In this document: positions 9,862 through 60,770 of the stretch, piece by piece
How the letters are laid out: each line of letters opens with the position of its first letter
How positions within the stretch are numbered: the stretch's first letter is position 1
Source of the DNA: an uncultured Clostridia bacterium
Lineage (GTDB): Bacteria > Acidobacteriota > Aminicenantia > UBA2199
DNA length: 64,000 nucleotides
Assembly: GCA_964628035.1 (NCBI GenBank)
Contig: CAZVPI010000007.1
Span: 10,322 to 74,321, forward strand
Direction: 5' to 3'
Made by a program: the position numbers and the translations under genes
Notes under the pieces: model-generated
Seen by the model: the letters and a program-made list of their open reading frames with translations, nothing else
Databases searched by the model: none
Told to the model about the DNA's origin: nothing

Positions 9862-10011
9862 GACGTTAGACATTAGCCGTTAGACGGTAGACGAGAGAAC
9901 GAGCACGAGACATTAGACGTTAGACGTCAGCAAGAGAAAGCAAGTGAAAAAGGAGGGGAGTCGCTCTACTTAATGCGTTTCCTTGTCACTCGTCACTCTT
10001 CACTTGTCACC
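9862..10011. repeat. modular intergenic repeat: TAGACGT-type tandem units, a GAAAGCAAGTGAAAAAGGAGG box, then a GTCACTC-type array
   Basis: agacgttagacattagccgttagacggtagacgag...gacattagacgttagacgtcagc is followed by cttgtcactcgtcactcttcacttgtcacc. The same modules recur in at least 18 other intergenic regions. Confidence 0.7.
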
Positions 10012-10023
10012 AAAGTTCGCCTG

Positions 10024-10506
10024 TTAAATGAACAACGTGAACTTGGACTCCGAGGCGTCGGCGATGAACGAGGCGACGCCGCCGATCGCGACGCCGTCGA
10101 TCAGGTCCTCCTTCTTGATCTCCATGACGTTCATGCTCATCTCGCAGGCGGTGAGCTTGACGCCGAGGTCCTGCGCCTGCTTGAGCAGCTGGGGCAGGCT
10201 GGTGACGTTGTGGGCCTTCATCATCTTCTTGAACATCCAGCGGCCCAGGCCGCCGAAGTTGAACTGGGAGGGGCCCAGGCGGTCGATGCCGCCGCGGTTC
10301 AGCAACCCCAGCATGCGGCCCATCAGCCCCTTGCCGGTCAGGTTGCCCTTCTGGATGGCCTTCAGCCCCCAGAAGGTGAAGAACATGGAGACCTGCATGT
10401 CGAAGGCGGCGGCGCCGGTGGCGATGATGAAGGCGCCCATCACCTTGTCCATGTCGCCGCTCATGACCACCAGGCTCGCTTTCTCAGGCGTTTGCGCGTC
10501 GCTCAT
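10024..10506 (-). CDS. dsrE: DsrE/DsrF-like sulfur-relay family protein
   Basis: 160 aa, reading MSDAQTPEKASLVVMSGDMDKVMGAFIIATGAAA...TACEMSMNVMEI. This is a DsrE-fold protein with a conserved Cys, and it is the last gene of the tusA-hdr operon. Confidence 0.7.
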   Translation of the reverse strand: MSDAQTPEKASLVVMSGDMDKVMGAFIIATGAAAFDMQVSMFFTFWGLKAIQKGNLTGKGLMGRMLGLLNRGGIDRLGPSQFNFGGLGRWMFKKMMKAHNVTSLPQLLKQAQDLGVKLTACEMSMNVMEIKKEDLIDGVAIGGVASFIADASESKFTLFI

Positions 10507-10533
10507 TGATCTCCTCCTCGGGATTCGTTTCGG

Positions 10534-11622
10534 CTATTTCAGGCCGGCAAAAAACAGGGCCGCCGGCCGGTAGACGACGTGGGCGAACTTGCTGAAGGGG
10601 AAGGTGACCAGCAGGTCGAAGACGAAGACGATGTGCACGGCCACGGTCACGTAGGCCGCCGGCAGCAGGCCCAGGAAGCGGAAGCCGACGATGGCGAAGC
10701 CGCTGAGCACCGAGAGCGCCAGCAGCAGCAGGAAGGCCCAGTCGCTGGGGTGGGAGTACTTGCCCACCGCCGTCTTCCCCGTCAAACGCAGGGCAAGGTA
10801 GTACCCCAGCCCCAGCGCGCAGGCGGCGCCGGAGACGGATCCGATTGCCAGCGATACCCAGCGCGGCCAGGGCAGCCAGCCGAAGTCGACGGCGCCGATG
10901 ATGATCGTGGCCAGCAGCATGCCCATGAAGCCCCAGGAGACCCCCATGTGCGCCAGGCGCCGCAGGCGGTCGTCGGCGCACTCGCCGAAGCGGTCCTGCA
11001 GCACCGACTCCTTGAGCGTCTGGAACGCCGAGTGGCCGGCCTTTTCCGCCCGCAGCGCGGCGAGGACATTCGGCGTGCCGCTCAGGTTGCGGGCCAGGAT
11101 CCACACCTGGATGGCGGCGACCCCGGCGATGAAGGCGACCAGGACGATCCCCGCCCAATGGACGGGCCCCAGGGGGATGAAGGACTGGAAGTCGAAGCGC
11201 TCCATGTCGGGATGCGGCTGCCGCGCCAGCAGCACCAGGGCCAGGGCGACGGCGCTCAGCGCCAGCCAGGTGACCAGCGATCCCAGTGAGGAATACACGG
11301 CGTCGGCGGCGCGGCCGAGCGCGTAGCGCCGGGTGGCGAAGCGGCGTAGGGCCATCATCAGCGAGGCGGGCTCGGCCTGGCGCGGGCAGGTCTCGCTGCA
11401 CTCGCCGCAGTAATAGCACAGCCAGGGCTCGGGCGCGGAGAGCAGGCGCCTTTCCAGGCCGAGCAACGCGTAGCGGATCATGCGCCGCGGGAAGGATGCG
11501 GCCTCCTGCGAGAGCGGGCAGATGGCCGAACAGGTGCCGCAGCTGTAGCAGGCCTCGAGGTCGAAGGCGCCGAGCTTCTTGATCTCGGCCAGGACCCGGG
11601 GATTGACCTTTTCCATGCTCAT
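10534..11622 (-). CDS. QmoC/HdrE-like membrane subunit: N-terminal HdrC-like 2x[4Fe-4S] ferredoxin fused to a multi-TM cytochrome b-like domain
   Basis: Start MSMEKVNP at about 11622 forms an ATGA overlap with the upstream gene stop. Two CxxCxxCxxxCP motifs are present (CYSCGTCSAICP, CYYCGECSETCP). About 6 TM helices follow, with conserved His residues (HSAF, HMGVSWGF, HIVFVFD, FAHVVY) as in HdrE/DsrM/QmoC. Confidence 0.7.
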   Translation of the reverse strand: MSMEKVNPRVLAEIKKLGAFDLEACYSCGTCSAICPLSQEAASFPRRMIRYALLGLERRLLSAPEPWLCYYCGECSETCPRQAEPASLMMALRRFATRRYALGRAADAVYSSLGSLVTWLALSAVALALVLLARQPHPDMERFDFQSFIPLGPVHWAGIVLVAFIAGVAAIQVWILARNLSGTPNVLAALRAEKAGHSAFQTLKESVLQDRFGECADDRLRRLAHMGVSWGFMGMLLATIIIGAVDFGWLPWPRWVSLAIGSVSGAACALGLGYYLALRLTGKTAVGKYSHPSDWAFLLLLALSVLSGFAIVGFRFLGLLPAAYVTVAVHIVFVFDLLVTFPFSKFAHVVYRPAALFFAGLK

Positions 11623-11897
11623 TTCTCCCCGGCCAGCGAGTAGCGGTGGAAGCCCTCGCCGTCGGCCTTCTCCGAGGCCCTGACCCGGCCGTAGCGCACG
11701 AAGCCCATCACCCACCAGGTGACCTGGGGCTCGGGGGCGCCCAGCTCGCGCGCCAGCTCGGGCAGGGTCAACGGCCCGCGGGCCGCCAGCAGCTTCAGGA
11801 CCCGGCCGCGGACGGCGAATTCCTGGCGGGCGGTCTCGCGCCCGCGCCCGAGAATGGCGACGCTCTCGGGAAAGCGCTCGCGGCTGCTGTCATTCAT
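11619..11897 (-). CDS. small winged-helix-like protein (putative regulator), conserved hypothetical
   Basis: 92 aa. The central segment VLKLLAARGPLTLPELARELGAPEPQVTWWVMGFVRYGRV looks like a helix-turn-helix. It overlaps both the hdrA end and the qmoC-like start. Confidence 0.4.
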   Translation of the reverse strand: MNDSSRERFPESVAILGRGRETARQEFAVRGRVLKLLAARGPLTLPELARELGAPEPQVTWWVMGFVRYGRVRASEKADGEGFHRYSLAGEK

Positions 11898-13662
11898 TCT
11901 CGGCCTCCCGGGCCAGCACGTCGATCATGGCCTCGATTTGTTCGTCGCTGTAGCCCTTCATCTGGGTGGCGTCGAGCGGGCAGGGGGGCAGGCAGGCGCC
12001 GCAGCCCTTGCACAGGGCCTCGACCACCTGGGCCACCTCCTTGTCCCCATAGGCGGCCTTCTCGATGGCGCCGTAGGGGCAGGCGGGCTGGCACTTGCCG
12101 CACCAGGTGCATGCATCGGCGCGGACATAGGCCACGAAAGGCTGCAGGTCGACATAGCCCTTGATCAGCAGCGCCGCGGCCTTGGCCACCGCCGCCAGCG
12201 AGGAGACGACGCTCTCGCCGGCGTTCTTCGGACCCTGGCAGGCGCCGGCGATATAGACGCCGTCGATGACCGTCTCCACCGGCCGCAGCTTGGGGTGGAT
12301 CTCGTTGTAGAAGCGGTCGGCGCCCAGCGGCAGCTTCAGCACCTTCGTCAGCCCGTCGTTGTCCCGCGCCGTCATGCCGGTGACCAGCACCACCAGGTCG
12401 GCCGCCAGCGCCACTTCCTCGCCGCCGGTGAGCAGGTCCTGGACGACCACGCGCAGGGAATCGCCGTCGCGCTCGACGCGCGGCGGCCGCTCCTCGTGGA
12501 AGCGCAGGAAGACCGAGCCCGACTTGCCCGCCTCCTCGTAGATCGTCTCGAACTTGCCGTAGGTGCGCATGTCGCGGTAGAGGTGGTAGCTGCGCACGCC
12601 GGGGAATTTCCTGGAGGCCAGCAGCGCCAGGTGGCAGGCGGCGCTGCAGCAATAGCGCGAGCACCAGCGGTTGAGGTCTTCGCCCTCGCCGTTCTGGCGG
12701 CTGCCGACGCAGTAGATGAAGGCGACCGAGCGGACTTCCCGGCCCTCGTGGAACAGCCGGCCGTCCCCCTCTTGCAGGAGTTTCTCGAACTGCGAGAGGG
12801 TGACCACCCCGGGCTGCCCGAAGGCGTACTCGCCCGGCTTGGGCCCGTACTCGGCGAAGCCGGTGGCCACCAGGATGGCGCCGACCCGGATGCGCACCGT
12901 TTCCTCCGCCGCGCCCCCTCGCCGGGAGCCTTCAGGGCCGGCGGGCCGGATGCGGATCGCCAGGTCAAACTCGCCGATATGGCCGTTTTTTCCCGCCAGT
13001 TCGGCGTTGCGGAACAGGGTGATGCCCGGCCGCTTGCGAACCTCCTCCAGCAGGGAGGCGACCAGCTCGGAGCCGACCTTGCCGGCCGGGAACATCTCGC
13101 CCAGCGCCGCGACCTGGCCTCCGGCGCGCGCCTCACGCTCAACGACGAAGACCTCAACGCCCAGGTCGGCCAGCTCGACGGCGGCGCGCAGGCCGGCGAT
13201 GCCGGCGCCCACGACCAGCACCCGCTTCACCGAGGTGACGCGGATCGGTTTCAGGGCCTCCTGGCGCAGGGCCTTCTCGACGCCGGCGCCCACCAGGTTG
13301 GCCGCCTTGCAGGTGGCGCCCGGGTGGTCGTCGGAATGGGCCCAGGAGCACTGCTCGCGGATGTTGACCTGCACGTACTGGAACGGGTTGAGCCCGGCGC
13401 GTGCCGACAGGTTGCGGAAAGTGGTCAGGTGCAGCTTGGGCGAGCAGGAGGCGACCACCAGGCCGTCAAGCCCCTGCTCCTGGATGTCCTTCATCATCTC
13501 GTTCTGCGAGGCGTCGGAGCAGGTGAACATCGAGGTCCTGGCCACGGTGACGCCGTATTGCTCCTCGATGCGCCTGCGCACCTCCTCGACGTCGATGTGG
13601 TCGGAGATGTTGCCGCCGCAATGGCAGATGTAGACGCCGATCCTCCTCTTCTTCTCTTCCAT
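11890..13662 (-). CDS. hdrA: heterodisulfide reductase subunit A (HdrA) flavoprotein
   Basis: True start MEEKKRRIGVYICHCGGNISD is at about 13662; the track ORF carries a spurious N-terminal extension. The HdrA N-terminal 4-Cys motif is present (IGVYICHCG...VVASCSPKLH...NIREQCSWAH). The FAD fold shows VLVVGAGIAGLRAA, and C-terminal ferredoxin motifs are CTWCGKCQPACP and CKGCGACLPPCP. Confidence 0.85.
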   Translation of the reverse strand: MEEKKRRIGVYICHCGGNISDHIDVEEVRRRIEEQYGVTVARTSMFTCSDASQNEMMKDIQEQGLDGLVVASCSPKLHLTTFRNLSARAGLNPFQYVQVNIREQCSWAHSDDHPGATCKAANLVGAGVEKALRQEALKPIRVTSVKRVLVVGAGIAGLRAAVELADLGVEVFVVEREARAGGQVAALGEMFPAGKVGSELVASLLEEVRKRPGITLFRNAELAGKNGHIGEFDLAIRIRPAGPEGSRRGGAAEETVRIRVGAILVATGFAEYGPKPGEYAFGQPGVVTLSQFEKLLQEGDGRLFHEGREVRSVAFIYCVGSRQNGEGEDLNRWCSRYCCSAACHLALLASRKFPGVRSYHLYRDMRTYGKFETIYEEAGKSGSVFLRFHEERPPRVERDGDSLRVVVQDLLTGGEEVALAADLVVLVTGMTARDNDGLTKVLKLPLGADRFYNEIHPKLRPVETVIDGVYIAGACQGPKNAGESVVSSLAAVAKAAALLIKGYVDLQPFVAYVRADACTWCGKCQPACPYGAIEKAAYGDKEVAQVVEALCKGCGACLPPCPLDATQMKGYSDEQIEAMIDVLAREAENE

Positions 13663-16370
13663 CAGGACTTCCTCTTCATGCGCTCGATGTAGGCCGCCGC
13701 CTGGGCCGCCGCCGCCCCGGCGCTCAGGATGGAATCGGGGATGTCCAGCGGCCCGGTGGCGGTGCCGGCGCTGAACACCCCGGGGATGGAGGTGCGCGCC
13801 GGGTCGACCTGCTTCCCGGGCTGGGCTACGAACAGCGTCTCGTCGAAGTCCGGCCCGCCGCCGGCGAACAGCCCGCGGCAGCCGTCGCCGGCCACGATGC
13901 CCGTCGACAGCACCACCAGGTCGTGCTCGGCCTCGCGCACGGCGCCGTGGTCGTCGATGTCCTCGTAGCGCACCTTCAGGTTGCCGTTGCCGGCCTCGCT
14001 GACCTTGGCCACCTTGCCCTTGACAAAGCGCACGCCCATGGCCCGGGTTTGCTCGAAGAATTCGTCGTAGCCCTTGCCGAAGGCGCGGATGTCGATGTAG
14101 TAGATCGTGATGTCGGCCACCGGCAGCGCCCCCAGCAGCAGCTGCGCCTGCTTGAGCGAGTACATGCAGCAGACGCGCGAGCAGATGGGATTGTTCTGGG
14201 TGCGGTCGCGCGAGCCGACGCAGAAGACATAGGCGATGTTGGCCGGCGCCTTGCCGTCGCCGGGCCGCAGCACATGGTTGTAGGGGCGGGTGGGCGCCAC
14301 CAGGCGGTCCATCTGCATGGCGGTGACGACGTTGGCGTACTTGCCGTAGCCGAATGTCTCCATGAGTTCGGCCGGGAAAAGGCGGAAGCCAGTGGCCAGC
14401 ACCACGGCTCCGGCGCCGACCTCCTCGACCTGCTCGCGCTGGTCGAAGTCGATGGCGTCGGCCGGGCAGGCGCGCTTGCATTCCTGGCACTCGCTGCAGA
14501 TGCCGCAATTGAGGCAGTTGGCGGCACTGGCCAGGGCCTCCTCCTCGCTGAACGGCAGGTCGACCTCGGCGAAATCCTTGATGCGTTCGCGCGGGTGGCG
14601 CTCCGACTTCTCCACCCTGCGGGCCGGGAATTCGGCCTGCCGCGCCAGCACATCCTTTTTGTCGACGACCGGCAGCCGCGGGTCGAACTCGACATCCGCC
14701 AGCGTCTCGCCGCGCAGGAAGCGGTCGATGAAGAAGGCCGCCCGCTTGCCCAGCCCCATGGCCTGGACGATCATCGCCGGACCGGTCACGGCGTCGCCTG
14801 CGGCGAACAGCCAGGGCCGGTCGGACTGCAGCGTGCGCTCGTCGGCCCGTACCGTTCCGTCGCGGTTGAGCGGCAGCTCGCGCCGCAGGGCCGCCGCCTC
14901 GGCGCTCAAGCCGATGGCGACGATGGCCAGGTCGAAATCAGCGGTGAACTCCGAGCCGGGAACGGGCACCGTGCGGCGGCGGCCGCCGTTGCCTTCCGCG
15001 ACCGGCTTCATGCGCACGCTGCGCACCCGCCGCAGGCGGCCGTTCTCCTGCTCGAAGGCCACGGGATTGCCGAGAAACTCCAGGACCACCCCCTCGGCCT
15101 CGGCCGCCGCGACCTCCTCGCCGGAGGCCGGCATCTCGGTTCGCGTGCGGCGGTACTGCAGGACGACCCTGGCCGCCCCCAGCCGCAGCGCCGTGCGCGC
15201 GGCGTCCACGGCCACGTTGCCGCCGCCGACCACCAGCGCGCTCTTGCCGCGCAGGTCGAGCTTCTGGCCGCAGAGGACCTCGGCCAAAAACTCGATGCCG
15301 CTGAAGACCTCCGGCAGCTCCTCCCCGGGGACCATGAGCCTCCTGGGCTTGGGCGTGCCGACGGCGACGAGGACGGCGTCGTAACCGCTGTCCTTGAGCG
15401 CGCTGAGCGAATCCACGCGAGCGCTGGCGCGGATCTCCACGCCCAGGGCGGTCACGTTGCGGATGTCGCGGTCGACGACGTCCTTGGGCAGCCGGTAGTC
15501 GGGCAGGCTGGAGCGCAGCATGCCGCCCGGCTCTCGGTCGGCCTCGAAGACCGTGACCGGGTATCCCGAGCGTGCCAGGAAGTAGGCCGCGGTCAGGCCG
15601 GCCGGGCCCGAGCCGACGACCGCCACCTTCCTGTCCCGCGTATTTTCCATGGCGCCGTAGTCGGGCTCGGGATGGCGGGCGTAATACCAGTCGGCGACGA
15701 AGCGCTTCAGGTGGCGGATGTGCGGGGCGGCGCCGATCTCCTCCCGCGAGCACTCGCGCTGGCAGAAGGCATAGCAGGCGCGGCCTAGGGTGCCGACCAG
15801 CGGCGCGTCTTCCAGCACCAGCCGGAACGCTTTTTCAAACTCGCCCTGGCGGATGAGCGAGATGTAGCCGTTGGCCTTGATGCCCGCCGGGCAGGCGTAG
15901 GTGCAGGGCGAGGTGCCGGCGCGGTCGATCACGGCCTTCTTGGGCACCGCCTGGGGATAGGCGATGTGGGCCACGCGCCGCGAGACGAGGTTCTCGTTGT
16001 ATTCGTCGGGGACGGTGACGGTGCAGGCCTTCTCGCAGTCCTGGCAGCCGGTGCACTTGGCGAAGTCAACGAAGGCCGGCTTGCGCGCCACGCGGGCGCG
16101 GAAGCCGCCGGCCCCGTCGCGGCGCACCTCGCGCACCTCGCTGTAGACGCGCAGGTCGATGTTGGCGTGGCTGGCCGCCAGCGCCATCTTGGGGGTGGAG
16201 ATGCAGGAGGCGCAGTCGAGCGTGGGGAAGACCTTGCTGAGCAGGATCATCTTGCCGCCGATGCTCGGCTCCTTTTCCACCAGCAGCACCTTGTAGCCCA
16301 TGTCGCCCAGGCTGACCGCCGCCTCCATGCCGGCGATGCCGGCGCCGAGGACCATCACGTCGTAGTCCAT
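13662..16370 (-). CDS. HdrL-like large HdrA homologue with inserted GltD/NfnB-like NAD(P)H-binding domain
   Basis: 902 aa. The N-terminal HdrA FAD fold reads MDYDVMVLGAGIAGMEAA. A ferredoxin motif CTGCQDCEKAC is present. The inserted GltD/NfnB-type domain reads KVAVVGSGPAGLTAAYFLARSGYPVTVFEADREPGGMLRSSLPDYRLPKDVV...ALVVGGGNVAVDAAR. The later motif CLNCGICSECQECKRACP is followed by the HdrA C-terminal part. Both its start and its stop form ATGA-type overlaps with neighbours. Confidence 0.8.
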   Translation of the reverse strand: MDYDVMVLGAGIAGMEAAVSLGDMGYKVLLVEKEPSIGGKMILLSKVFPTLDCASCISTPKMALAASHANIDLRVYSEVREVRRDGAGGFRARVARKPAFVDFAKCTGCQDCEKACTVTVPDEYNENLVSRRVAHIAYPQAVPKKAVIDRAGTSPCTYACPAGIKANGYISLIRQGEFEKAFRLVLEDAPLVGTLGRACYAFCQRECSREEIGAAPHIRHLKRFVADWYYARHPEPDYGAMENTRDRKVAVVGSGPAGLTAAYFLARSGYPVTVFEADREPGGMLRSSLPDYRLPKDVVDRDIRNVTALGVEIRASARVDSLSALKDSGYDAVLVAVGTPKPRRLMVPGEELPEVFSGIEFLAEVLCGQKLDLRGKSALVVGGGNVAVDAARTALRLGAARVVLQYRRTRTEMPASGEEVAAAEAEGVVLEFLGNPVAFEQENGRLRRVRSVRMKPVAEGNGGRRRTVPVPGSEFTADFDLAIVAIGLSAEAAALRRELPLNRDGTVRADERTLQSDRPWLFAAGDAVTGPAMIVQAMGLGKRAAFFIDRFLRGETLADVEFDPRLPVVDKKDVLARQAEFPARRVEKSERHPRERIKDFAEVDLPFSEEEALASAANCLNCGICSECQECKRACPADAIDFDQREQVEEVGAGAVVLATGFRLFPAELMETFGYGKYANVVTAMQMDRLVAPTRPYNHVLRPGDGKAPANIAYVFCVGSRDRTQNNPICSRVCCMYSLKQAQLLLGALPVADITIYYIDIRAFGKGYDEFFEQTRAMGVRFVKGKVAKVSEAGNGNLKVRYEDIDDHGAVREAEHDLVVLSTGIVAGDGCRGLFAGGGPDFDETLFVAQPGKQVDPARTSIPGVFSAGTATGPLDIPDSILSAGAAAAQAAAYIERMKRKS

Positions 16371-17434: not shown

Positions 17435-17738
17435 AGGCGAACGAAATTTCCGGGATGACACTGGCGCCCTTGGTTCGATCAGCTTCTGGCCAGCACAAAC
17501 ACCAACCTGCCCAAAATTCCTTTGCAGGAAACCTAATGAAACGGGCAGGACGAAAGCACCCATTTCCAAGCACCAAATCCACCTGGCGGGGACGATGCCC
17601 CCTGGCGGGGGCGATGGGACCCAAACCAGGGCCCTCGAAAGGAAAAGGCAAAAGTGAGGCGAACAGGCAATTTATTTTGGACGGCGCTGGTTTCTTGCTC
17701 GCACTAACACTAACGCTGCGAAATGGGTTTCCTTATCG

Positions 17739-18332: not shown

Positions 18333-18605
18333 AGCTCCTTGGGGATCGAGCCCATATTATAATACAAATGCGCAAGATCGCCAAATGGAAATGGATGATC
18401 ACGTGTTAGCGTTGGTGTTAGCAGGAAATTCAACGAACAAGAGGGGATAGTGACGATGGCAGCAGCGGCATCGATAAGGGCGTATGGCTTTTGCCGTACG
18501 CCGTACGCCCTCTGTCGAACGCCAATCTCCATGAAGTTCCCTTGCAACCCGGTTCGACACCCCCTCGTCGAATATGATACAGTATACAAGGAAAACGACC
18601 ATCCC

Positions 18606-20621: not shown

Positions 20622-20723
20622 GGCTTGGCATACGGCGCACGGCGGACGGCAAACCCCTGTACCGCTCGATTTCGTCAAGGGCCCGCTGCCGTATGCCGTA
20701 CGCCGTGAACCGTCCGCCAAGCC
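20622..20723. repeat. ACGGC-unit repeat block present in both orientations (imperfect about 100-nt palindrome) between exbD and lptB
   Basis: ggcttggcatacggcgcacggcggacggcaaacc...gctgccgtatgccgtacgccgtgaaccgtccgccaagcc. Both arms start and end with GGCTTGGC / GCCAAGCC. Confidence 0.6.
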
Positions 20724-26887: not shown

Positions 26888-27012
26888 CTTTCGTTATCCC
26901 GTGACGAGTAACGAGTGACGAGGGGAAACAACAGATCGACCTCTTCCCTCTTACCCCCAGCAAAGTTCAATTCATTGCCTTTTCTTGTCACTCGTCACTT
27001 GTTACTTGTCAC
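26884..27012. repeat. inverted pair of GTGACGA-unit arrays flanking an about 60-nt spacer between convergent ptsI and plsC
   Basis: gtgactttcgttatcccgtgacgagtaacgagtgacgagg at 26884-26923. cttgtcactcgtcacttgttacttgtcacgg at 26984-27012 is its reverse complement apart from a few substitutions. Confidence 0.7.
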
Positions 27013-28689: not shown

Positions 28690-28860
28690 AATAAGGGACT
28701 AGGCGTACGGCACGGACAGAGTGATTAGTGATTTGTGATTAGTGATTAGCAAACACAATGAACCGGCCCATGCGGTTCCAATGACTGATTACTGATCACA
28801 ATTCGCGTTTGGCGTATGCTACTGCTGCTACTTTCGCCAGCATTTTCTGTCCGCTGAGCG
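28690..28860. repeat. modular intergenic repeat (ACGGC-, TGATTAG- and GCTACTGCTGCTAC-type modules)
   Basis: ctaggcgtacggcacggacagagtgattagtgatttgtgattagtgattagc...actgattactgatcac...gctactgctgctact. Confidence 0.55.
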
Positions 28861-29049
28861 GATTGCTGTTTCTGGCACGGAAAAAGAGGGACGCCGCGCC
28901 TTGGGGGCCGCGGCGTCCCAGGGGGGAGGAGAATCGATGATCCATACAAACGACTCAGGACATGAGGTGCAGCCCGGGAAGTATAAGGCTCGGGCAAGTC
29001 CGTTCGACGCCTTACCCTACGCCCTCCGCCCTGCGCCTTGTGCCTAGAG

Positions 29050-30184: not shown

Positions 30185-30487
30185 ATTAGTAATAAATCAT
30201 ATTATTAATAATAAAACAGATTTTCATTCGTGTCCACTGGCTTGCCTCATTATGGGAAGCTCAGGGAAGACAGAGCCTGTTGGACTCAGGAGCAAACCGA
30301 TATGGAGAGGAGGGGGGGTGAAGCAAGAAAAGCAATCCAGAATCCGGCTGATAGGGCCTTTGCGGCTTTCTCCTATATAGTTCAATTCATTGCGGTTGCC
30401 AACACTGACACGAACACTGAAAAAGACTTTTCCCGCACTCTCTCCCCTCTTTCTTCCCTGGAGTGGATTCCATGCTATACTGCGCTC

Positions 30488-31198
30488 ATGCAACCGACGA
30501 GCTCATTCAGCGGCTTTCCCCAACTCACCGTCTCGTTCCTGCGCGAGCTGAAGAAGAACAACGACCGCGAATGGTTCGCCGCCCATCGCGGCGAATACGA
30601 GGAATCGGTCCTGGCGCCGGCCCGGGCCTTCGTGACGGCCATGGGCGAGCGCCTGCGCCGGCTGGCGCCCGGCATGAGCTTTTCTGCCGGGGCCAACGGC
30701 TCGATCTTCCGCATCCACCGCGACACGCGCTTCGGCCCCGACAAGTCCCCCTACAAGACCAACCTGGGCATCTATTTCTGGGAGGGGCGCGGAGCGAAGA
30801 TGGAAAGCTCGGGGTTCTATTTTCATGTCGAGCCGCCCGTCCTGCTGCTGGGCGGCGGCATGTACGTTTTTTCCAAAACCTTCCTCGCCCGCTACCGCCG
30901 GGCCGTGGCCGACCCAGAATTCGGGCCCGAGCTGGCCGCCATCGTGCGCCGCATCGCCCGCCGGCCCGGTTTCACCATCAACGGCAGCGCCTACAAGCGC
31001 ATCCCGCCCGGTTACGATCCGGCCCCCGAGGCCGCGCCGCTGCTGCTGCACGACGGCCTCTACGCCGGCTGGCAGGGGCGCATCCCCGCCGAGTTTCACT
31101 CCCCGGCCTTGGTTGATTTTTGCTTTGAAAAATTCAGGGTCATGCTGCCGCTGCACCGCTGGCTGTCGCAACTGATGCAAGGGGGCTTTGCGCTGTAG
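30488..31198 (+). CDS. DUF2461 (TIGR02453) family conserved hypothetical protein
   Basis: Start MQPTSSFSGF. The segments FLRELKKNNDREWF...FRIHRDTRFGPDKSPYKTNLGIYF...GFYFHVEP match the DUF2461 pattern as I recall it. Confidence 0.55.
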   Translation: MQPTSSFSGFPQLTVSFLRELKKNNDREWFAAHRGEYEESVLAPARAFVTAMGERLRRLAPGMSFSAGANGSIFRIHRDTRFGPDKSPYKTNLGIYFWEGRGAKMESSGFYFHVEPPVLLLGGGMYVFSKTFLARYRRAVADPEFGPELAAIVRRIARRPGFTINGSAYKRIPPGYDPAPEAAPLLLHDGLYAGWQGRIPAEFHSPALVDFCFEKFRVMLPLHRWLSQLMQGGFAL

Positions 31199-34177: not shown

Positions 34178-34199
34178 GTTCCCTCCTCATCTCAATGCC

Positions 34200-34413
34200 T
34201 GCCCAATCATACCCCAAGAGAGGAGACTATCCAACATTCAGCTAACGCTTTCCCGGCGGACGGAACCGGTTTTTTCAACATTTTTTAGCTGTCTTTTTAA
34301 TTATTGATTTATTTTACTATTTTGTAAATTGATATTTATTTTTTTAATATTTTTTTTGACTTTATTAATTTTTTATGCTATTAATACTTCAGAAAATAAT
34401 GGAGGGCCTATCA
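34200..34413. promoter_or_regulatory. extremely AT-rich divergent promoter region with an extended -10 promoter for the DUF2089 operon
   Basis: About 190 nt of A/T tracts in a roughly 68% GC genome. TTGACT (34356-34361) is followed by 17 nt and TGcTATTAAT (34376-34385). A GGAGGG RBS lies at 34401, ahead of ATG 34414. Confidence 0.4.
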
Positions 34414-37629: not shown

Positions 37630-37639
37630 GGGAGCTTAC

Positions 37640-37985
37640 GGCCGAGGGCCGCCGTACTGGGGATCTTATGTGATGAGTGGTAAATGATGAGGAACCGCAA
37701 TGGATCGAACTTTGTGGCTGCGAATCCCCGATCGAAAGCATTAGGCTGCAGGGGAAGAAAAAACCAGGGCTTTTTCGAATCTAGAAGTCCCAAATCACAG
37801 GCAAGCTCGGGCTTTGCTGTTTCTCATCACTCATTACTCATCACGCATCACTCATCACGATGGTTCATCTCAAGGCAGCTGCTACCACTATCACTACCAC
37901 TCTTAGCTCATTGATCTCGTCAGTTCGCTGGGTTTCCTGCTAACACCAACACGAACACTAAACACTAAGAGATCGTTCTGTTGCT
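37640..37985. repeat. composite intergenic repeat with conserved module order (ACGGC-like, ATCACGA array, GCTGCTACCACTATCACTACCACT, TCGTCAG, CTAACAC array)
   Basis: ...tcatcactcattactcatcacgcatcactcatcacgatgg...gctgctaccactatcactaccact...tcgtcagttcgctgggtttcctgctaacaccaacacgaacactaaacactaagagatcgttct. The same order recurs at 49044-49300 and 44462-44692. Confidence 0.65.
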
Positions 37986-40597: not shown

Positions 40598-40840
40598 AAA
40601 GAAGCGAACTACAGACGTCAGACGCTAGGCGTTAGACGTCAGCAAGGCTAAGAATGTGAACAGAAAAAAGTGAAGGGGACACAACCGCTCCAGGCGTACG
40701 GCATAAGGCCCTGAAGGTCCCCGCTCAGGTGGCGCAAGACATACGGCAACGGCAGGGAACGAGCCGCAGGAATGAACAAACCTAGGCGTAAGGCATACAG
40801 CAAAAGCACTTCGTCTACAGAGAAGGTAGGCTTTCAACTT
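40598..40840. repeat. modular intergenic repeat (CAGACGT array, GAACAGAAAAAAGTGAAGG box, ACGGCATA...CCTGAAGGTCCCCGCTCAGG block, GGCTTTCAACTTGG box)
   Basis: The 40694-40760 block is about 85% identical to 35495-35550. The GGCTTTCAACTTGGCCTGTGG box recurs at 53046 as GGCTTTAAACTTGGTGCGTGG. Confidence 0.65.
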
Positions 40841-40880
40841 GGCCTGTGGTACGGGGCACTTGGAACCTCTCCTCAAGTGC

Positions 40881-41078: not shown

Positions 41079-41273
41079 GGTTCCTCCTGGCAACAAGATA
41101 AACGGGGGGGTGGGACAAATGATGTCCTAGCTGGAGAAACCGTTTCAATCCAAAGGAAAAAGGCAAAAGTGAAAGCCCCTATGCCCGCATCCCTTGGTGT
41201 CCGTATCCCCTGGTTGCATAGAAATCCAGGGCCTGCTACACTGCAGTCAGCAAGGATGACAAGGAGGCCCATC

Positions 41274-41494: not shown

Positions 41495-42385
41495 GTGGCA
41501 GGAGACGGCTGGCTCCCCCGCGCCGCCCTCGCCGCGGCCCTGCTGCTGGCCCTGACGACTGCGTCCGCCGTCGCCCAGGAGGGGCCGCACATCGACCCGC
41601 AGGGCGGGACGGTGGCGGCGCGCTTCCTGCCCCCAGCCGGGTTTCGGCGCCCCGCGGCCGCGCCGGACAGCTTCGCCGCCTTCCTCCGCTCCCTGCCGCT
41701 GAAGGCGCAGGGCGCCGAAGTCCGGCTCTTCGACGGACGGATCAAGGCCAACCGCGGCGTCTATGCCGCAGTCGTCGACCTGCCCATCGGCCCCGTCCCG
41801 GCGGGACGGGGCGGCCCCCGCGACCTGCACCAGTGCGCCGACGCGATCATCCGCCTGCGCGCCGAGTACCTGTTCTCCCAGCGCCGCTTCGACGAGATCC
41901 GCTTCCGCTTCGGCAGCGGCTTTCCGGCCGAGTACGCCCGCTGGCGGCGGGGGGGACGCATCGCCGTGCGCGGCAACGACGCACGCTGGGTGGCGGGCGG
42001 TGCGCCCGGGGACGGCCGCCGCTCCTTCTGGCGCTACTTGGAGACGGTTTTTGCCTACGCCGGCACGGCGTCGCTGGCGCGGGAGCTGGCCCCGGCGCCG
42101 GGAAACGACCCCCGGATCGGCGACATCTTCATCCAGCCCGGCCATCCGGGCCATGCCGTCATCGTCGTCGACCGCGCCGTCGACTCCAGGGGCGGCGCCG
42201 TGTTCCTCCTGGCCCAGAGTTACATGCCGGCCCAGGAGATCCACATCCTGGCCAATCCGGCCGATGCCGACCTGAGCCCCTGGTACGCCTCCGGCTTCGG
42301 CGAAACCCTGGAAACGCCGGAGTGGACGTTTCGAGCTCAAGACCTGATGCGCTTCCCGGAGGAGCGGCAATCTCAAGTGAACTAA
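41495..42385 (+). CDS. secreted conserved hypothetical protein (possibly DUF4846-like)
   Basis: 296 aa. It has a signal peptide (ALLLALTTASAVAQE) and conserved blocks HQCADAIIRLRAEYLF and GDIFIQPGHPGHAVIVVD. The family assignment is from memory only. Confidence 0.4.
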   Translation: MAGDGWLPRAALAAALLLALTTASAVAQEGPHIDPQGGTVAARFLPPAGFRRPAAAPDSFAAFLRSLPLKAQGAEVRLFDGRIKANRGVYAAVVDLPIGPVPAGRGGPRDLHQCADAIIRLRAEYLFSQRRFDEIRFRFGSGFPAEYARWRRGGRIAVRGNDARWVAGGAPGDGRRSFWRYLETVFAYAGTASLARELAPAPGNDPRIGDIFIQPGHPGHAVIVVDRAVDSRGGAVFLLAQSYMPAQEIHILANPADADLSPWYASGFGETLETPEWTFRAQDLMRFPEERQSQVN

Positions 42386-42589
42386 GTGACAAGTGACGAG
42401 TGACGAGTGACGAGGAGCCGCAAGGAACGATCTTTGCCTGTTCCTCACCTCGACAACTCAGCCTCCCGCCTTCGCTCATTACGCCTCACGAAACGTGATC
42501 GCCCGCCCGACCGGGTGATTGCCTCAAAATTTATGATCGATCGACCAATGACTTTCCTTGTTACTTGTCACTCGTCACTTGTCACTGAG
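42377..42589. repeat. inverted pair of GTGACGA-unit arrays flanking an about 140-nt spacer between convergent genes
   Basis: gtgaactaagtgacaagtgacgagtgacgagtgacgagg at 42377-42415, and cttgttacttgtcactcgtcacttgtcactgag at 42557-42589, which is reverse-complementary to it. The structure is the same as at 26884-27012. Confidence 0.7.
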
Positions 42590-42600
42590 TCCGCGGTTCG

Positions 42601-44461: not shown

Positions 44462-44692
44462 TCTTTTACAAGCAACAGACGTTAGACGCCAGACGGAAGA
44501 CGATAGCCAGGCAAAGAGAGTGAAAATGGAGAGAGTCGGTACAGCACGGGTTCACGGTATACGGTAGACGGTTTATGGCAACGGCGCTCAATGATCTGCA
44601 GTGATGAGCGATACGTGACAAGTGATGAGAAACCGCGCTCGTCGAGTTTCTTGCTAACACTAACACAGAGAGATGGTTCAGAGCTGGATTGA
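44462..44692. repeat. composite intergenic repeat (CAGACGT array, GAGAGTGAAAATGGAGAG box, ACGGT array, GTGATGAG/GTGACAAG, CTAACAC array)
   Basis: caacagacgttagacgccagacggaagacg...acgggttcacggtatacggtagacggtttatggcaacgg...gtgatgagcgatacgtgacaagtgatgag...tcgtcgagtttcttgctaacactaacacagagagatggttc. Confidence 0.65.
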
Positions 44693-46147: not shown

Positions 46148-46269
46148 GTCGACTTCGGCAAACCACTCCGACACTGAAGGCCGTATTGGGACAAGCAGCA
46201 AGCTCTGTAAAGGGTTTGGGGGATAGCCAAAACGGTTTTTAGGCAAGGCCAGATACTGGTAAGACTAAA

Positions 46270-46428
46270 ATTCCAAGCACCAAGCACCAAATCCCAAACA
46301 AATTCCAAGTTCCAAATTCCAATCTCCCGAACAAAAACCCATTCAAGCGTCTTTTCTTGTTTTGTTCATTGGGTAATTGGTGCTTGGTGCTTGTTTGGAA
46401 TTTGGTGCTTGGAACTTGGTGCTTCGGT
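46270..46428. repeat. inverted arrays of CACCAAG/CCAAATT units forming an about 160-nt imperfect palindrome
   Basis: ttccaagcaccaagcaccaaatcccaaacaaattccaagttccaaattccaatctcc...ggtaattggtgcttggtgcttgtttggaatttggtgcttggaacttggtgcttcgg. The right half is the reverse complement of the left, with substitutions. Confidence 0.7.
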
Positions 46429-46637
46429 CATACCCGTTTTTAATTTATTTTGGACAGATTTGATAAGCAATGAGAAGCTGCACAAGATCGATCTGTGCTG
46501 ATTCAAATGCAAATCACGAATCACGACAGGAAGGGATCATTTGCTTCATTCTTGAATGAATGCAAAATGTCCTGCTTCCCGGTCGCATTTTCACTTTGCT
46601 TCTGGCACAATTTTGTTTGCGAGATCGAGAGGAGCCG

Positions 46638-49043: not shown

Positions 49044-49300
49044 AAGCGGCGTACGGTTCACGGTGGACGGTTTACGGCAAGAAAAAACAGCAAATTTCAA
49101 ACAAGCACCAATGACCCAAACCTAGTCGCTTGAAAAGTAAAAGGAAAAAGGCAAGAGTTAAGTGACCTTGGTCTTTCGAATCACGAATTACGAATTACGA
49201 TAGCTCTTTTATTGCTGCTACTATCACTACCACTATCACTTCTAGTTCGTCGAGGTTCTTGCTGACACTGACACTGACACTGGCACGGAGGGATCGTTCT
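49044..49300. repeat. composite intergenic repeat with the same module order as 37640-37985
   Basis: gcgtacggttcacggtggacggtttacggc...aagcaccaatgacc...gaaaagtaaaaggaaaaaggcaagagttaagtgacc...gaatcacgaattacgaattacgatagc...gctgctactatcactaccactatcac...tcgtcgaggttcttgctgacactgacactgacactggcacggagggatcgttct. Confidence 0.7.
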
Positions 49301-50366: not shown

Positions 50367-50497
50367 GAGCCACCTCGCCGGGAGATTGCGACACGTAGTG
50401 TATCACAAAGGGCTGGGATTGTATGTCAGGGCACTCAAAAGGCCAAAAGAAGATGCCCGCGGTTTTTCGGATTCCGGATCACGACAGCTCGTGTCAT

Positions 50498-50582
50498 CAT
50501 GGCTGCTCCCATCACGGATCGCCGATCACCCATCACCTGGACTTGTTCATTGTAGGGCTTGTTGTTGCCACCACCATGACCC
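50498..50582. repeat. about 85-nt intergenic element with a second copy at 53120-53210 (about 75-80% identity)
   Basis: catggctgctcccatcacggatcgccgatcacccatcacctggacttgttcattgtagggcttgttgttgccaccaccatgacc compared with catggctgccgcgaatcactaattccccatcaccaggacttgttcattccagggctcgctgctaccaagaccactatgacc. Confidence 0.65.
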
Positions 50583-50636
50583 CAAGCACTTCAGGGTTCG
50601 CCGAGTTTCTTCGCCGACACGGCTGGTTCGTTGCGT

Positions 50637-50666
50637 TTGACTTGCCTGCGGCGAATCCCCTATAAT
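50637..50666 (+). promoter_or_regulatory. sigma70-like promoter TTGACT-N18-TATAAT upstream of pyrF
   Basis: ttgacttgcctgcggcgaatcccctataat. The predicted TSS is about 30 nt upstream of ATG 50706. Confidence 0.4.
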
Positions 50667-52940: not shown

Positions 52941-53119
52941 GAGATTGAAAAGAGCAATCCAGGTTAGTCAGCGACGGACAGACCGACGGTCCAACGCGGT
53001 TCCACGTACCATGTACCACGTTAAACAGCAAAAGCACATCGCCGATAGAGGACGCCGGCTTTAAACTTGGTGCGTGGGGGGTGGCCATGGAATCTCATCT
53101 TTATCTCCCAGGTGCCACT

Positions 53120-53210
53120 CATGGCTGCCGCGAATCACTAATTCCCCATCACCAGGACTTGTTCATTCCAGGGCTCGCTGCTACCAAGACCACTATGACC
53201 ATCACTGGCA
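53120..53210. repeat. second copy of the about 85-nt element found at 50498-50582, preceded by GGCTTTAAACTTGG and ACGG-type modules
   Basis: See 50498-50582. The upstream flank 52962-53010 reads cagcgacggacagaccgacggtccaacgcggttccacgtaccatgtaccacg. Confidence 0.6.
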
Positions 53211-53249
53211 TGGTTTTGCCGTAAGCCCTGTTCTTTCTTTACAGACGCT

Positions 53250-58075: not shown

Positions 58076-58078
58076 GTG

Positions 58079-59053: not shown

Positions 59054-59125
59054 CGTTCTCCAGCCCCGCAAAAAAAGCCGTCCGCCCCCTGCCGGGAGCG
59101 GACGGCGGCTGCGCCGCTGCGGCGC

Positions 59126-60440
59126 CTATTTCTTGAATTTCTTGCCCAGGATCTCCTCCAGGTTCGGGGTGCCGATCTCCTGGAGCTCGTAGCCGACGCG
59201 GACCGTGGGCCTCTTGAACGTGACGATGCGGCCCAGGTCGATGGGCGTGGCGATGACGATCAGGTCGCAGTCCACCTTGTTGATGGTGGCCTCCAGGTCC
59301 TTCATCTGCTTGGCGCCGTAGCCCATGGCCGGCAGCAGCACGCCGATGTCGGGGTACTTGCGGAAGGTCTCGGCGATGGTGCCCACGGCCCAGGGGCGCG
59401 GATCGACCAGCTCGGCGGCGCCGTACTTCTGGGCGGCCATGACGCCGGCGCCGTACTGCATCTCGCCGTGGGTCAGGGTCGGGCCGTCCTCGATGACCAG
59501 CACGCGCTTGCCGCGGATCCTCTCGCCGTTCTTGACCAGCAGCGGCGAGGCGGCGTCGACCACGACGGCCTTGGGGTTCAGCTCGCGGATGCTCTCGCGC
59601 ACCTCCAGGACGTTCTCCAGGTCGGCGGTGTCGATCTTGTTGATGACGATGACGTCGGCGCGGCGGAAGTTGACCTCCCCCGGGTAATACTCGCGTTCGT
59701 GGCCAGCGCGGTGCGGGTCGGCGACCACGATCTCCAGGTCCGACTTGTAGAAGGGGAAGTCGTTGTTGCCGCCGTCCCAGAGGATGACGTCGGCCACCTT
59801 CTCGGCCTCGCGCAGGATGGCGCCGTAGTCGACGCCGGCGAACACGATGACGCCGTTCTCGATGTGCGGCTCGTACTCCTCCATCTCCTCGATGGTGCAC
59901 TTGTGCCTGGCCAGGTCGGCCTTGGTGACGAATTTCTGCACCTTCTGGGCCACCAGGTCGCCGTAGGGCATGGGATGGCGGATGGCGGCCACCTTCTTGC
60001 CCATGGCGATCAGGATCTGGCTGACGCGGCGGGTGGTCTGGCTCTTGCCGCAGCCGGTGCGCACGGCGCAGACCGAGACGACGGGCTTGCTGCTCTTGAT
60101 CATCGTTTCGCGGGGCCCGAGCAGGATGAAGTTGGCGCCGGCGGCCTGGACCTCGGCGGCCTTGTCCATGACGTACGTATGGCGCACGTCGCTGTAGGCG
60201 AAATAGACGTCGTCGATCTCCAGCTTCTTGATCAGATCGACCAGTTCGGTCTCGGGATAGATGGGGATGCCCTGGGGATAATATTCGCCGGCCAGCTGGC
60301 GGGGGTACTTGCGCCCGGCGATGTCGGGAATCTGGGTGGCGGTGAAGGCCTTTACCCGGATCTCGGGGTTGTTGCGGAAAAACACGTTGAAATTATGGAA
60401 ATCCCGGCCGGCGGCACCCATGATCAAGGCGTTACGCATG
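59126..60440 (-). CDS. cyclic 2,3-diphosphoglycerate synthetase-like / COG2403-type predicted P-loop GTPase
   Basis: 438 aa from MRNALIMGAAGRDFHNF. The P-loop is VCAVRTGCGKSQTT. The family assignment is from memory (cpgS-like). It lies upstream of arcC on the same strand. An AGGAGG RBS is present. Confidence 0.5.
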
Positions 60441-60526
60441 AAATTCCTCCTGTATTTTTGTTGTTTTTCGCAGTGGCAATGAACGGTAATTATAAACAAT
60501 ATGGGGCGGGGTGTCAATGATAAAAA

Positions 60527-60770
60527 AGACGTCAGACGCCAGACGTCAGACGCGGGCAAGACAAGGAAAAAGACCTTCTTCGGCATTCTGAAGCTGAATG
60601 CGCCATGTTCACCGTCAGGGCCGTTTTTCCTGCTAACGTCTGTCGTCTAACGTCTATGAAGAAGACGTCAGATGTTAGACGTTAGCGGTTAGCAAGAAAA
60701 AAGCCCTGTAATCACAAATCTTCTCTTCTCTTGCTAACGTCTAACGTCTAGCGTCCAACGTCGAATGTCT
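60527..60770. repeat. four alternating-orientation CAGACGT/GTTAGACG arrays in the divergent intergenic region between the cpgS-like gene and galE
   Basis: aagacgtcagacgccagacgtcagacgc (+), tgctaacgtctgtcgtctaacgtcta (-), aagacgtcagatgttagacgttagcggttagc (+), ttgctaacgtctaacgtctagcgtccaacgtc (-). Confidence 0.7.

Follow-up and report, generated by a model that had tools for sequence, protein, structure and literature searches.

The question raised by this stretch of DNA is what the short tandem repeats are that recur in the spacers between its genes. The stretch, referred to below as the window, comprises 64,000 nucleotides (nt) of contig CAZVPI010000007.1 (positions 10,322 to 74,321) from the genome of an uncultured Candidatus Aminicenantes bacterium (Acidobacteriota). 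An excess of heptanucleotide repeats in intergenic DNA has been reported from bacteria since about 1990 and is still unexplained; such repeats are already known as a kind of feature from cyanobacteria, Xanthomonas, Geobacter and Beggiatoaceae, and no description of such repeats for Aminicenantes was found in the literature. A preliminary description, made from the letters of the window alone, proposed a genome-specific family of modular intergenic elements, for which it offered iterated protein-binding sites, a mobile non-autonomous element or structured RNAs as explanations. As set out below, the arrays are real and occupy almost every spacer between the genes, about half of them belong to same-family inverted pairs that form hairpins (the main structural point, which had been overlooked), and their families are common to a group of related species. 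The tentative answer given here is that they may derive, as arms or pieces of arms, from small non-coding foldback elements that are repeated throughout the clade.

Material compared

This genome is represented by the window of about 64 kb and its relatives by 20-kb loci (designated by L-numbers where they must be told apart), making some 350 kb of DNA from the clade in all; RpoN and its neighbours have orthologues that are 79–87% identical in 16 metagenome-assembled genomes of Aminicenantes or Acidobacteria. The negative control was 897 kb made up of 80 unrelated loci, sharing a generic histidine-kinase motif with a kinase query from the window. The gene map follows the gene calls of identical public contigs (ENA, Logan, JGI), with two Pfam-based corrections.

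Reality of the arrays

When Tandem Repeats Finder was run on the window, period-7 arrays were borne out at essentially all of the regions listed in the preliminary description, namely at 9861, 9985, 18493, 20632/20687, 26904/26984, 28720, 37823, 40612, 41152, 42385/42557, 44476/44554, 46273–46424, 49052/49177, 50508, 53002 and 60527–60770, although three of the regions (17560–17730, 35495–35600 and 41140–41180) prove to hold copies of family modules rather than clean tandem heptamers. Some modules have a period of 6 (CTACCA, AACACN) or of 11–12 (the GGGAAGA type). The units that had been named (TAGACGT, GTGACGA, GACACTG/TAACAC, ATCACGA, ACGGCAT and CCAAGCA) are all present, as are the boxes that accompany them, the purine box GAAAAGGCAAAAGTGA and GCTGCTACCACTATCACTACC.

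The self-match at a lag of 7 is 0.266 in coding and 0.329 in intergenic DNA, and 6.3 kb of intergenic DNA contains 12 clusters that match at this lag in 17 or more of 21 positions, as compared with none in 47 kb of coding DNA; lags of 4, 5 and 8–13 give 0 or 1 cluster each at the same threshold. With a looser threshold there are 16 period-7 clusters in the 6.5 kb of spacer belonging to the 66–70% GC part of the window, to be compared with 0.04 ± 0.21 in 200 dinucleotide shuffles, and period 7 is dominant over periods 5–9. Coding DNA is therefore free of arrays, as had been claimed, and the spacers are indeed the AT-richer part of the window (GC 0.32–0.66, against 0.65–0.71 in coding DNA). The one array that had been placed inside a coding sequence, near the start of the DUF2461 gene, in fact lies outside it, upstream of the real start. 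In the called open reading frame (ORF) the Pfam domain does not begin until residue 76, orthologues align only from residue 53–59, and the ATG at 30489 has a TGnTATACT box ahead of it at 30471. The public gene calls place the start about 62 codons too early (30302–30488), and the “extra” N-terminus is repeat-element DNA.

That the arrays might be artefacts of assembly, a possibility raised at the outset, is excluded by their being unchanged in five other, independent assemblies (ENA, Logan, JGI), the contigs of which are 99.94–100% identical to the window and gap-free, arrays included. It must be remembered that the six assemblies are near-clonal, so that they are uninformative as to the rate of slippage, except in showing that the arrays are not hypervariable; no differences of array length were found among them.

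Arms, inverted pairs and mosaics

Far from being free microsatellites, the arrays are short and of narrow length range, having 3.0–5.4 units with a median of 4.1, and they form arms, modules of 21–37 nt with 3–5 units each, that fall into about a dozen families (a few of them with a period of 6 nt or 11–12 nt). The 70 strong arrays belong to few unit classes, the GTGACGC type accounting for 16 (in 7 species), GTGACGA/GTGACAA for 15 and ATCACGA for 6. An inverted partner lies within 450 nt of 34 of the 70, as against 0 of 70 when the flanks are shuffled, and same-family pairs have been seen in at least 11 different families; those of the window begin at 20622/20691, 26900/26984, 28719/28785, 37670/37814, 42381/42555, 46255/46372, 60527/60632 and 60663/60729.

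The complementarity lies between arms and not inside a single arm, and since same-family arms converge, single-stranded DNA or RNA of either strand would be able to form a long hairpin. When the inverted pairs were folded, z-scores lay between −3 and −10 for both strands, whether the parameters were those of RNA or of DNA. The centres between the arms are 20–230 nt long, non-repetitive and, in the commonest families, unconserved. With a size of 100–210 bp and arms of 20–40 nt, the elements have the dimensions (50–500 bp) and the terminal inverted repeats of a miniature inverted-repeat transposable element (MITE).

The remaining spacers hold half elements, hybrids or mosaics. The arm at 9982–10010, for instance, has no same-family partner, implying that the spacer 9861–10010 is a hybrid of two half elements. 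In the mosaics the modules recur in a set order, which is AGACGTY arm, purine box, ACGGYNT module, ATCACGA array, GCTGCTACCA box and CTTGCT(AACACN)n box. All-against-all BLAST of the window spacers showed that similarity between them reaches past the arrays (85% over 54 nt, 76% over 62 nt, 74% over 73 nt of non-array sequence, and 71% over the 68 nt of a two-box composite), and the picture of modular intergenic elements occurring in both orientations is supported.

Occurrence and turnover in related species

What does not stand is the proposal that the family is genome-specific, as at least ten related species-level Aminicenantes genomes carry the same unit families (GTGACGA/GTGACGC, AGACGTY, ACGGCAT, ATCACGA, CCAAGCA and others). 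Strong period-7 clusters occur at 31.8 per 100 kb in eight related species and at 1.8 per 100 kb in the 897-kb control, an 18-fold difference, and four arm consensus sequences had zero matches in that control.

The family found at a given place changes from species to species. In the spacer between ExbD and LptB it is ACGGCNN in the window, GTGACRA in L011 and L021, GTGACGC in L012, L014 and L016, the 11–12-nt GGGAAGA type in L015 and L020, AGTGAAA in L028 and a 16-nt palindrome in L023, while L017 has a spacer of 79 nt with no element; the spacers orthologous to that between PtsI and the acyltransferase show a comparable variety of families. Nor does the type of element follow the relatedness of the genes beside it: in these flanking genes L020 and L012 are 95% identical, yet L020 has the element type of L015.

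In two families whole foldback elements of 130–190 bp have been copied to unrelated spacers. The CCAAGCA-type element (46255–46437 in the window) occurs in four species (also L020, L023 and L021) in four different spacers, and in L020 and L023 it is nested in the loops of other hairpins. The GGGAAGA type is represented by 8 copies in addition to a degenerate one at 30258–30467 in the window, with 70–85% identity over the full length, loop included.

One arm of the GTGACGC type, CGTGACGCGTAACGCGTGACGCGTGACG, is a 28-nt sequence with a fixed order of unit variants; it recurs at 11 sites, spread over 7 species and 4 spacers, with no more than one mismatch, and is absent from the 897-kb controls. 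Between the species that carry it, the third-codon identity of neighbouring genes is 76–94% (mean 0.82, i.e. a synonymous divergence of about 18%). In the ExbD|LptB spacers of L012 and L016 the arms are identical at 27–28 of 28 positions and the loops are unalignable. The arms are thus better kept than third codon positions, for which plain slippage or neutral decay would be insufficient; the arms would either be read sequence-specifically and selected, or be continually re-copied or converted.

The single clean indel seen between close relatives is of 14 nt and lies inside an arm, most between-species spacer alignments being too diverged for a trustworthy indel spectrum. As a separate matter, L014 has about 190–250 nt of extra non-repeat DNA at 6571–6980 (the p195|p335 spacer) relative to the 90%-identical L012 and L020, and the spacers of this clade change also by large indels unrelated to arrays.

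Outside the clade, searching with the exact 28-nt arm gave 0 matches in IMG/VR and two weak matches only in plasmids, both to heptamer arrays of Burkholderiaceae. Intergenic tandem arrays of GTGACGC/GTGACGA occur at about 401–430 in L109 (Burkholderia cenocepacia) and at 403–435 in L110 (Caballeronia sp.), the latter beginning 10 nt past a stop codon and having the G-rich orientation; either one heptamer has recurred across phyla or the likeness is coincidental. Two further loci do indicate that the same architecture is present in other lineages: of two unrelated metagenome contigs, L037 has four GTTCCGC/GTTCCGA arrays and two of other units (3496–14047), and L039 has a GAAGGCT... / CCTTCAG inverted pair, G-rich arm first, directly after a histidine-kinase gene (10489–10677).

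Position, polarity and reading frames

A promoter scan placed the arrays strictly outside functional signals, that is between a stop codon and a terminator, between a stop codon and a −35 box, or between divergent −35 boxes, three divergent spacers having elements exactly between the boxes (60517/60784, 44461/~44689 and 50446/50637). Downstream of Prx there are arrays both between the stop codon and a canonical terminator and between that terminator and the next −35 box. This terminator (28899–28922) is kept in all relatives examined and, like another at 59077–59106, is GC-rich with a T-run, from which it is clear that the clade does not lack ordinary terminators.

Many arrays begin no more than 15 nt from a stop codon, and twice they provide or span one: the TAA of the DUF4846 gene (42383–42385) is provided by the left arm of the foldback at 42381–42590, and the module at 37602–37649 spans the stop of the fn3-domain gene. 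As the right arm of the foldback at 26900–27012 also overlaps the final codons of the acyltransferase gene (26995–27012), the elements can be said to shape gene 3′ ends.

Of the two arms of an element, the 5′ one is in general G-rich and the 3′ one C-rich, the CCAAGCA type being the exception. G exceeds C in 25 of 34 arrays lying in the left half of a spacer and C exceeds G in all 21 lying in the right half (Fisher p = 2e-8), with the result that the outward strand, leaving the adjacent gene, is G-rich at the starts and at the stops of genes alike. When each distinct family is counted once, the polarity is weaker (14 vs 5). Whole-spacer GC or purine skew, left against right half, was not significant (12/23 and 15/23), and polarity is therefore a property of the arrays only.

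Among 55 arrays in the window and the mapped spacers of L011–L025, all three reading frames are closed on the outward strand in 37 and on the inward strand in 4, the inward strand of 45 having no stop codon at all. This trend is driven by the abundant GTGACGN superfamily, and as a general rule it was rejected, since per distinct family 11 of 23 close all frames against 8.9 expected (P = 0.2, not significant). Phase-variable contingency repeats were likewise considered and rejected, as the arrays lie outside −35/−10 spacers and coding sequences and show no length differences in the six near-clonal assemblies.

Interpretation

The reading favoured here, with a confidence a little short of even, is that the arrays are arms or fragments of a clade-wide repeat population of small, non-coding foldback elements resembling either the repetitive extragenic palindromic (REP) sequences and the bacterial interspersed mosaic elements (BIMEs) that they build, or foldback MITEs. 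They would then be the counterpart, in Aminicenantes, of the heptanucleotide repeats of cyanobacteria, Xanthomonas, Geobacter and Burkholderia. Of the three explanations first offered, it is thus the mobile non-autonomous element that the present data favour. The elements would spread between dispensable spacers and be maintained by a putative factor, presumably a protein that recognises the sequence of the arms and copies or preserves them, much as REP is maintained by its tyrosine transposase (RAYT) or the ends of a transposon by their transposase; occasional slippage in 7-nt steps may alter the number of units, and any effects on the host, such as terminating or insulating transcription units, would be secondary. 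What speaks for this is the small shared repertoire of families, their pairing, dispersal and turnover, the conservation of the arms, the narrow length range, and the placement in dispensable DNA only, with none in the 50% GC island at the left end of the window.

There are, however, clear points that weigh against it. No transposase or RAYT gene is present in the window or in the 20-kb relative loci, and the extra 3.9 kb of L011 holds ordinary genes (a Mrp/ParA-type ATPase, a CGGC-domain protein and a DUF134 protein); nor was an autonomous element with the same ends seen in this small search space, and the sample of clade DNA is itself small. No convincing case of target-site duplication was found, the sole candidate being 5 bp (GGCTC) flanking the GGGAAGA-type copy at 4783–4908 in L011 and 4763–4888 in L016, which is one shared insertion. 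In typical MITEs and REPINs (inverted pairs of REP sequences) the interior is conserved too, and it is shared among copies in the CCAAGCA and GGGAAGA types, but in the commonest families (GTGACGN, AGACGTY) the arms alone are shared and the loops are unrelated. At one orthologous spacer the GTGACGC arms are near-identical in several species and the loop has diverged past alignment, which would imply constraint in place or gene conversion and not the simple decay of a selfish insert. Finally, copies in the window are only 70–90% alike, so that there is no sign of a recent burst.

The next explanation, which is judged rather unlikely, is that the elements are gene-boundary elements selected by the host, their hairpins serving as terminators, stabilisers of mRNA 3′ ends or insulators by way of a cruciform, a polar protein roadblock or, where polymerases run into a gene, a C-rich RNA on which Rho could act. 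What sequence family a hairpin belongs to would then matter less than that each boundary has a polar one. At about 17 of the 21 gene ends in the window that face spacers of at least 100 nt, an array begins within 40 nt of the stop codon, and in several cases within 15 nt (counted by eye); a hairpin of one family or another occupies the same spacer in most species; the GTGACGC arms are conserved in place; the hairpins are very stable; and the per-array polarity, reported alike for Xanthomonas and Nostoc (PMC4692102), and the outward closure of reading frames point in the same direction. Canonical intrinsic terminators are also few, a terminator scan of the window having found no more sites than in shuffles. 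On the other hand, several pairs (60527–60762, 44475–44675 and 50478–50640) lie wholly between divergent −35 boxes, where there is no mRNA from the flanking promoters; the arrays stand beside the conserved Prx terminator instead of replacing it; L017 does without a hairpin; the stems are not followed by an adjacent T-run and have loops of 20–140 nt, unlike those of intrinsic terminators; ExbD|LptB inter-arm mismatches (6 G:T, 10 A:C, 12 other) show no sense-strand excess of G:U; and both polarity and stop bias are weaker per family. A terminator or insulator role is possible all the same, and the readings are mutually compatible rather than exclusive, REP elements being both selfish and co-opted by their hosts.

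Less probable again is that each arm is a set of iterated binding sites, four subsites each read once, for one or a few nucleic-acid-binding proteins, whether a nucleoid protein or global regulator, of the sort suggested for the paired sites of Geobacter, or a protein (cold-shock-domain or HutP-like) that binds single strands and covers 7 nt. The 28-nt arm with its fixed order of unit variants conserved between species would suit this well, as would the four or so units per arm, the occurrence of ACG or CGT in 48 of 70 units (69%, against 19% expected) and the arrays that abut −35 boxes at several promoters, and there are precedents for the proposal (PMC2700814, PMC4679880). Yet a dozen families would require either many proteins or binding of very low specificity, at any one promoter the family is swapped between species with gene order unchanged, the flanking genes have no common function, the distance to the −35 box or stop codon is variable, and a spacing of 7 bp puts successive sites on different faces of the duplex.

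A more speculative reading, and a slightly less probable one, is that polar heptamer arms constitute a protein-read “gene-boundary code” bracketing each transcription unit, with the families as interchangeable alleles of one function. The arrays would have a factor of their own, which on reading them halts or insulates transcription (through a polar roadblock, Rho or R-loops), the outward strand would be the G-rich one that closes all three frames, and the code might extend to Xanthomonas, Nostoc, Geobacter and Burkholderia. Such allelic interchange would explain how arms can be conserved in place and families nevertheless be swapped between species.

That the arrays are a neutral by-product of slippage favouring 7-nt steps (Mrazek's hypothesis), tolerated where frameshifts are harmless, seems improbable. 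Period 7 is the commonest of periods 5–11 in the 897-kb control also (16 clusters, against 0–8 for the others), the only clean indel is 14 nt within an arm, and coding DNA is without arrays; but slippage would leave unaccounted for the small shared repertoire with the same order of variants across loci and species, the narrow length range, the same-family inverted pairing, the homology reaching beyond the arrays, the 18-fold excess over controls and the identity of the arrays in near-clonal contigs of six assemblies.

Structured non-coding RNA genes or riboswitch-like leaders, which strongly negative folding z-scores and the location of some arrays in 3′ or 5′ untranslated regions might suggest (those in 3′ untranslated regions must be transcribed), can hardly be the answer, given that Rfam had 0 matches at gathering score on both strands of the 64 kb, that both strands fold equally well around unconserved loops, that inter-arm mismatches have no wobble bias on the sense strand (G:U 7 vs A:C 7 in the window), and that some elements lie outside any predicted transcript, which together leave no evidence for selection on RNA structure.

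Comparison with known repeat systems

The preliminary description had recognised no described REP, BIME or ERIC family, and this holds. The closest likeness is to the repeats of Xanthomonas (GGGAATC) and Nostoc PCC 7120 (GGGGAYT), which mostly have about four units, are about 90% intergenic and dispersed, and are found a short way past the upstream ORF, each genome having 70–75 inverted pairs that converge, with function unknown (Rehm et al. 2015, PMC4692102). The Aminicenantes arrays share the 7-nt units, the number of about four per array, the inverted pairs, the same polarity and the closeness to the upstream ORF. They differ in that a dozen heptamer families coexist, in place of one dominant G-tract unit studied for G-quadruplexes, in that some families are whole foldback elements with conserved loops, and in that the arrays often lie between divergent genes, which in those two is rare. 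A G3 tract in every unit is absent from all the heptamer families (GTGACGA, AGACGTY, ACGGCAT, ATCACGA, CCAAGCA and similar), and only the GGGAAGA type, with its period of 11–12, carries one per unit; G-quadruplexes therefore cannot be the common denominator.

In Geobacter metallireducens several classes of 3–5 tandem repeats of 7–9 nt occur as opposite-strand pairs at variable distance, are intergenic and confined to a single one of several closely related species, and were interpreted, without a test, as binding sites of a global regulator (IHF/HU) (Aklujkar et al. 2009, PMC2700814). The likeness lies in intergenic tandem heptamers paired on opposite strands at variable distance; the unit sequences are different, and the comparison of orthologous spacers between species has been made here only. 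Beggiatoaceae have intergenic TAACTGA heptamer repeats (PMC4679880). For cyanobacteria, the short tandemly repeated repetitive (STRR) sequences and long simple repeats of 5–11 nt are described, as far as they are summarised in later papers, as comprising several intergenic heptamer families per genome, patchy across phyla, with heptamers the most abundant class (Mrazek 2007, via PMC4679880, PMC4692102). STRR arrays can run up to tens of units and are variable in length, in contrast to the 3–5 units and fixed composition of the arms here, and the slippage explanation offered for long simple repeats does not fit a conserved 28-nt arm.

A REP sequence is an imperfect palindrome of 20–40 nt with a conserved GTAG-type head, the spacer of a REPIN is short and conserved, and a cognate RAYT is defining (Bertels and Rainey 2011, PMC3116915). 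In common with REP, BIME and REPIN, the present elements are extragenic inverted doublets forming long hairpins after genes or between convergent genes, and in common with BIMEs they form mosaics with a fixed module order and persist in a lineage. However, their arms are tandem arrays and not palindromes with a conserved head, and no gene for a RAYT (Y1 transposase) accompanies them in the DNA compared. The architecture also resembles that of the FB foldback transposons of Drosophila, in which long terminal inverted repeats made of short tandem units surround a variable middle, as the inverted arms do here; we know of no FB elements described in bacteria. Small size, lack of coding capacity and nested insertion are features shared with MITEs, but, unlike FB elements and MITEs, those described here come with neither a demonstrated target-site duplication nor a demonstrated autonomous partner.

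Catalogue of elements and their surroundings

The individual elements are collected in Table 1, together with the genes of the island at the left end of the window.

Table 1 Repeat elements of the window, and the genes of the 1–9550 island. Positions are those of the window; z, folding z-score on the strand given.
Position	Strand	Feature	Context and remarks
1–9550	−	Island genes: SIR2-like fragment, RmuC, YhcG/PDC-S02 PD-(D/E)xK nuclease, HmaA/DrmD-like SNF2 helicase with NOV_C domain (1147 aa), Schlafen-type helicase, MazG-like protein	Defence-type gene island
9861–9960	+	(AGACGTY)n arrays, then purine box AGCAAGAGAAAGCAAGTGAAAAAGGAG	Begin 1 nt past stop of a small ORF
9982–10010	−	GTGACAA/GTGACGA-type arm (TYGTCAC on + strand)	14 nt from stop of DsrE-like gene (10024–10506, −)
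17539–17716	+	Mosaic: CCAAGCA-type partial copy 17539–17578, purine box 17645–17662, box GTTTCTTGCTcgCACTAACACTAAC 17690–17716
18403–18470	−	CTTGCTAACAC box and GCTGCTACCA box, reversed	Part of composite 18403–18511, which lies just beyond −35 of leftward promoter (18384)
18477–18511	−	Short GCCGTAC hairpin	Same composite
20622–20654, 20691–20723		ACGGCNN / GCCGTNN inverted pair, 82% complementary	Between ExbD stop and lptB −35 (20743); z −3.0 (+), −6.4 (−)
26900–27012		GTGACGA-type foldback	Between convergent PtsI and acyltransferase genes; z −6.0
28719–28804		AGTGATT / AATCACT inverted pair	Upstream of DAGK promoter; related ATCACGA/AATCACT family at orthologous spacer in six species
29015–29040	−	(AGGGCGN)4 array, gene strand	2–10 nt past Prx stop, upstream of intrinsic terminator ~28899–28922
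30258–30467		Degenerate GGGAAGA-type element; left end CTCAGGGAAGACAGAG, right arm CTTTTCCCgCACTCTCTCCCCTCTTTCTTCCCTGGAG	Upstream of real DUF2461 promoter and start
30393–30418		AACACTG array	Enclosed by the degenerate GGGAAGA-type element
35495–35548	+	ACGGCAT module CGTACGGCATACGGCCCTGAAGGTCCCCGCTGAGGGGGC...	11 nt past SHOCT-gene stop; further copies at 37602–37649 and 40695–40748 (85% and 83% identity)
37602–37649	+	ACGGCAT module, third copy	Spans stop codon (37629) of fn3-domain gene
37670–37700, 37814–37859		GTGATGA / CTCATCA inverted pair	113 nt between arms; z −3.8
37878–37975	+	Box GCTGCTACCACTATCACTACCACT (period 6), then AGTTCGCTGGGTTTCCTGCTAACACCAACACGAACACTAAACAC	Order recurs at 49213–49290, reversed at 18403–18470
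40611–40685	+	AGACGTY arm and purine box	Followed by ACGGCAT module 40695–40748
40797–40869	+	Non-array repeat, 73 nt	Common to 53025–53096
41152–41174	+	Purine box AAAGGAAAAAGGCAAAAGTGAA	Other copies 49140–49161 and 17645
42381–42590		GTGACGA-type foldback; 36-nt arms, 32 Watson-Crick pairs, 138-nt centre	Convergent genes; z −8.0 (+), −4.9 (−)
44475–44675	+	Mosaic: AGACGNN arm, purine box, ACGGTNN array (44549–44575), GTGATGAG segment, CTTGCTAACACTAACAC box	Fits exactly between divergent −35 boxes 44461 (−) and ~44689 (+)
46255–46437		CCAAGCA/CCAAATT-type foldback, ~180 bp	Opposite polarity, C-rich arm first; z −9.3 (+), −10.4 (−)
49050–49290	+	Unpaired mosaic: ACGGTNN 49050–49080, CCAA-type remnant 49085–49116, purine box 49131–49160, ATCACGA/ATTACGA 49176–49201, GCTGCTAC box 49213–49244, CTTGCT(GACACT)n 49245–49290	Convergent genes
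50478–50640	+	ATCACNN / CCACCA composite	76% identical over 62 nt to 53131–53192; between divergent −35 boxes 50446 (−) and 50637 (+)
52998–53096	+	CCACGTA array 52998–53022 and non-array repeat 53025–53096	Within 52998–53230; convergent genes
53105–53230	+	ATCAC / GCTGCTACCA composite	Same convergent spacer as CCACGTA array
60527–60553, 60632–60655		First AGACGTC / AACGTCT foldback	Starts 10 nt beyond leftward −35 (60517); z −3.8 (+), −5.0 (−)
60663–60697, 60729–60762		Second AGACGTY foldback	Ends 22 nt before rightward −35 (60784); z −8.9 (+), −9.8 (−)

The island at 1–9550, with all genes on the − strand, is recently acquired; its GC content is about 50%, as compared with 62–71% in the native DNA beyond 9550, and Tandem Repeats Finder found no heptamer arrays in it. 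The 115-kb ENA contig stops at 9718, close to the island junction. Two other spacer features stand apart from the heptamer families. The first is a direct repeat at 17585–17625 (ctggcggggacgatgcccc / ctggcgggggcgatggga) with a period of about 18, outside all of them; the second is a divergent spacer of 32% GC at 34178–34413 with a loose 15-nt AT-rich periodicity, several promoter-like matches and no heptamer arrays; it may be curved, or may serve the regulation of the hemerythrin and DUF2089 operons.

Significance

What is new here is the coexistence of many heptamer families without G-tracts, the conserved 28-nt arm, the exchange of families at orthologous spacers and the nested foldbacks. 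An example from a candidate phylum adds constraints on any explanation of intergenic heptamer repeats: a fixed arm length of about four units, and at least one arm family conserved above synonymous sites, argue against plain slippage, while same-family inverted pairing and G-rich-first polarity recur as in Xanthomonas and Nostoc. In practical terms, the elements could break assemblies and do misguide gene callers, as at the DUF2461 start; for the organism itself, they enlarge its spacers and give some of its genes their stop and C-terminal codons.

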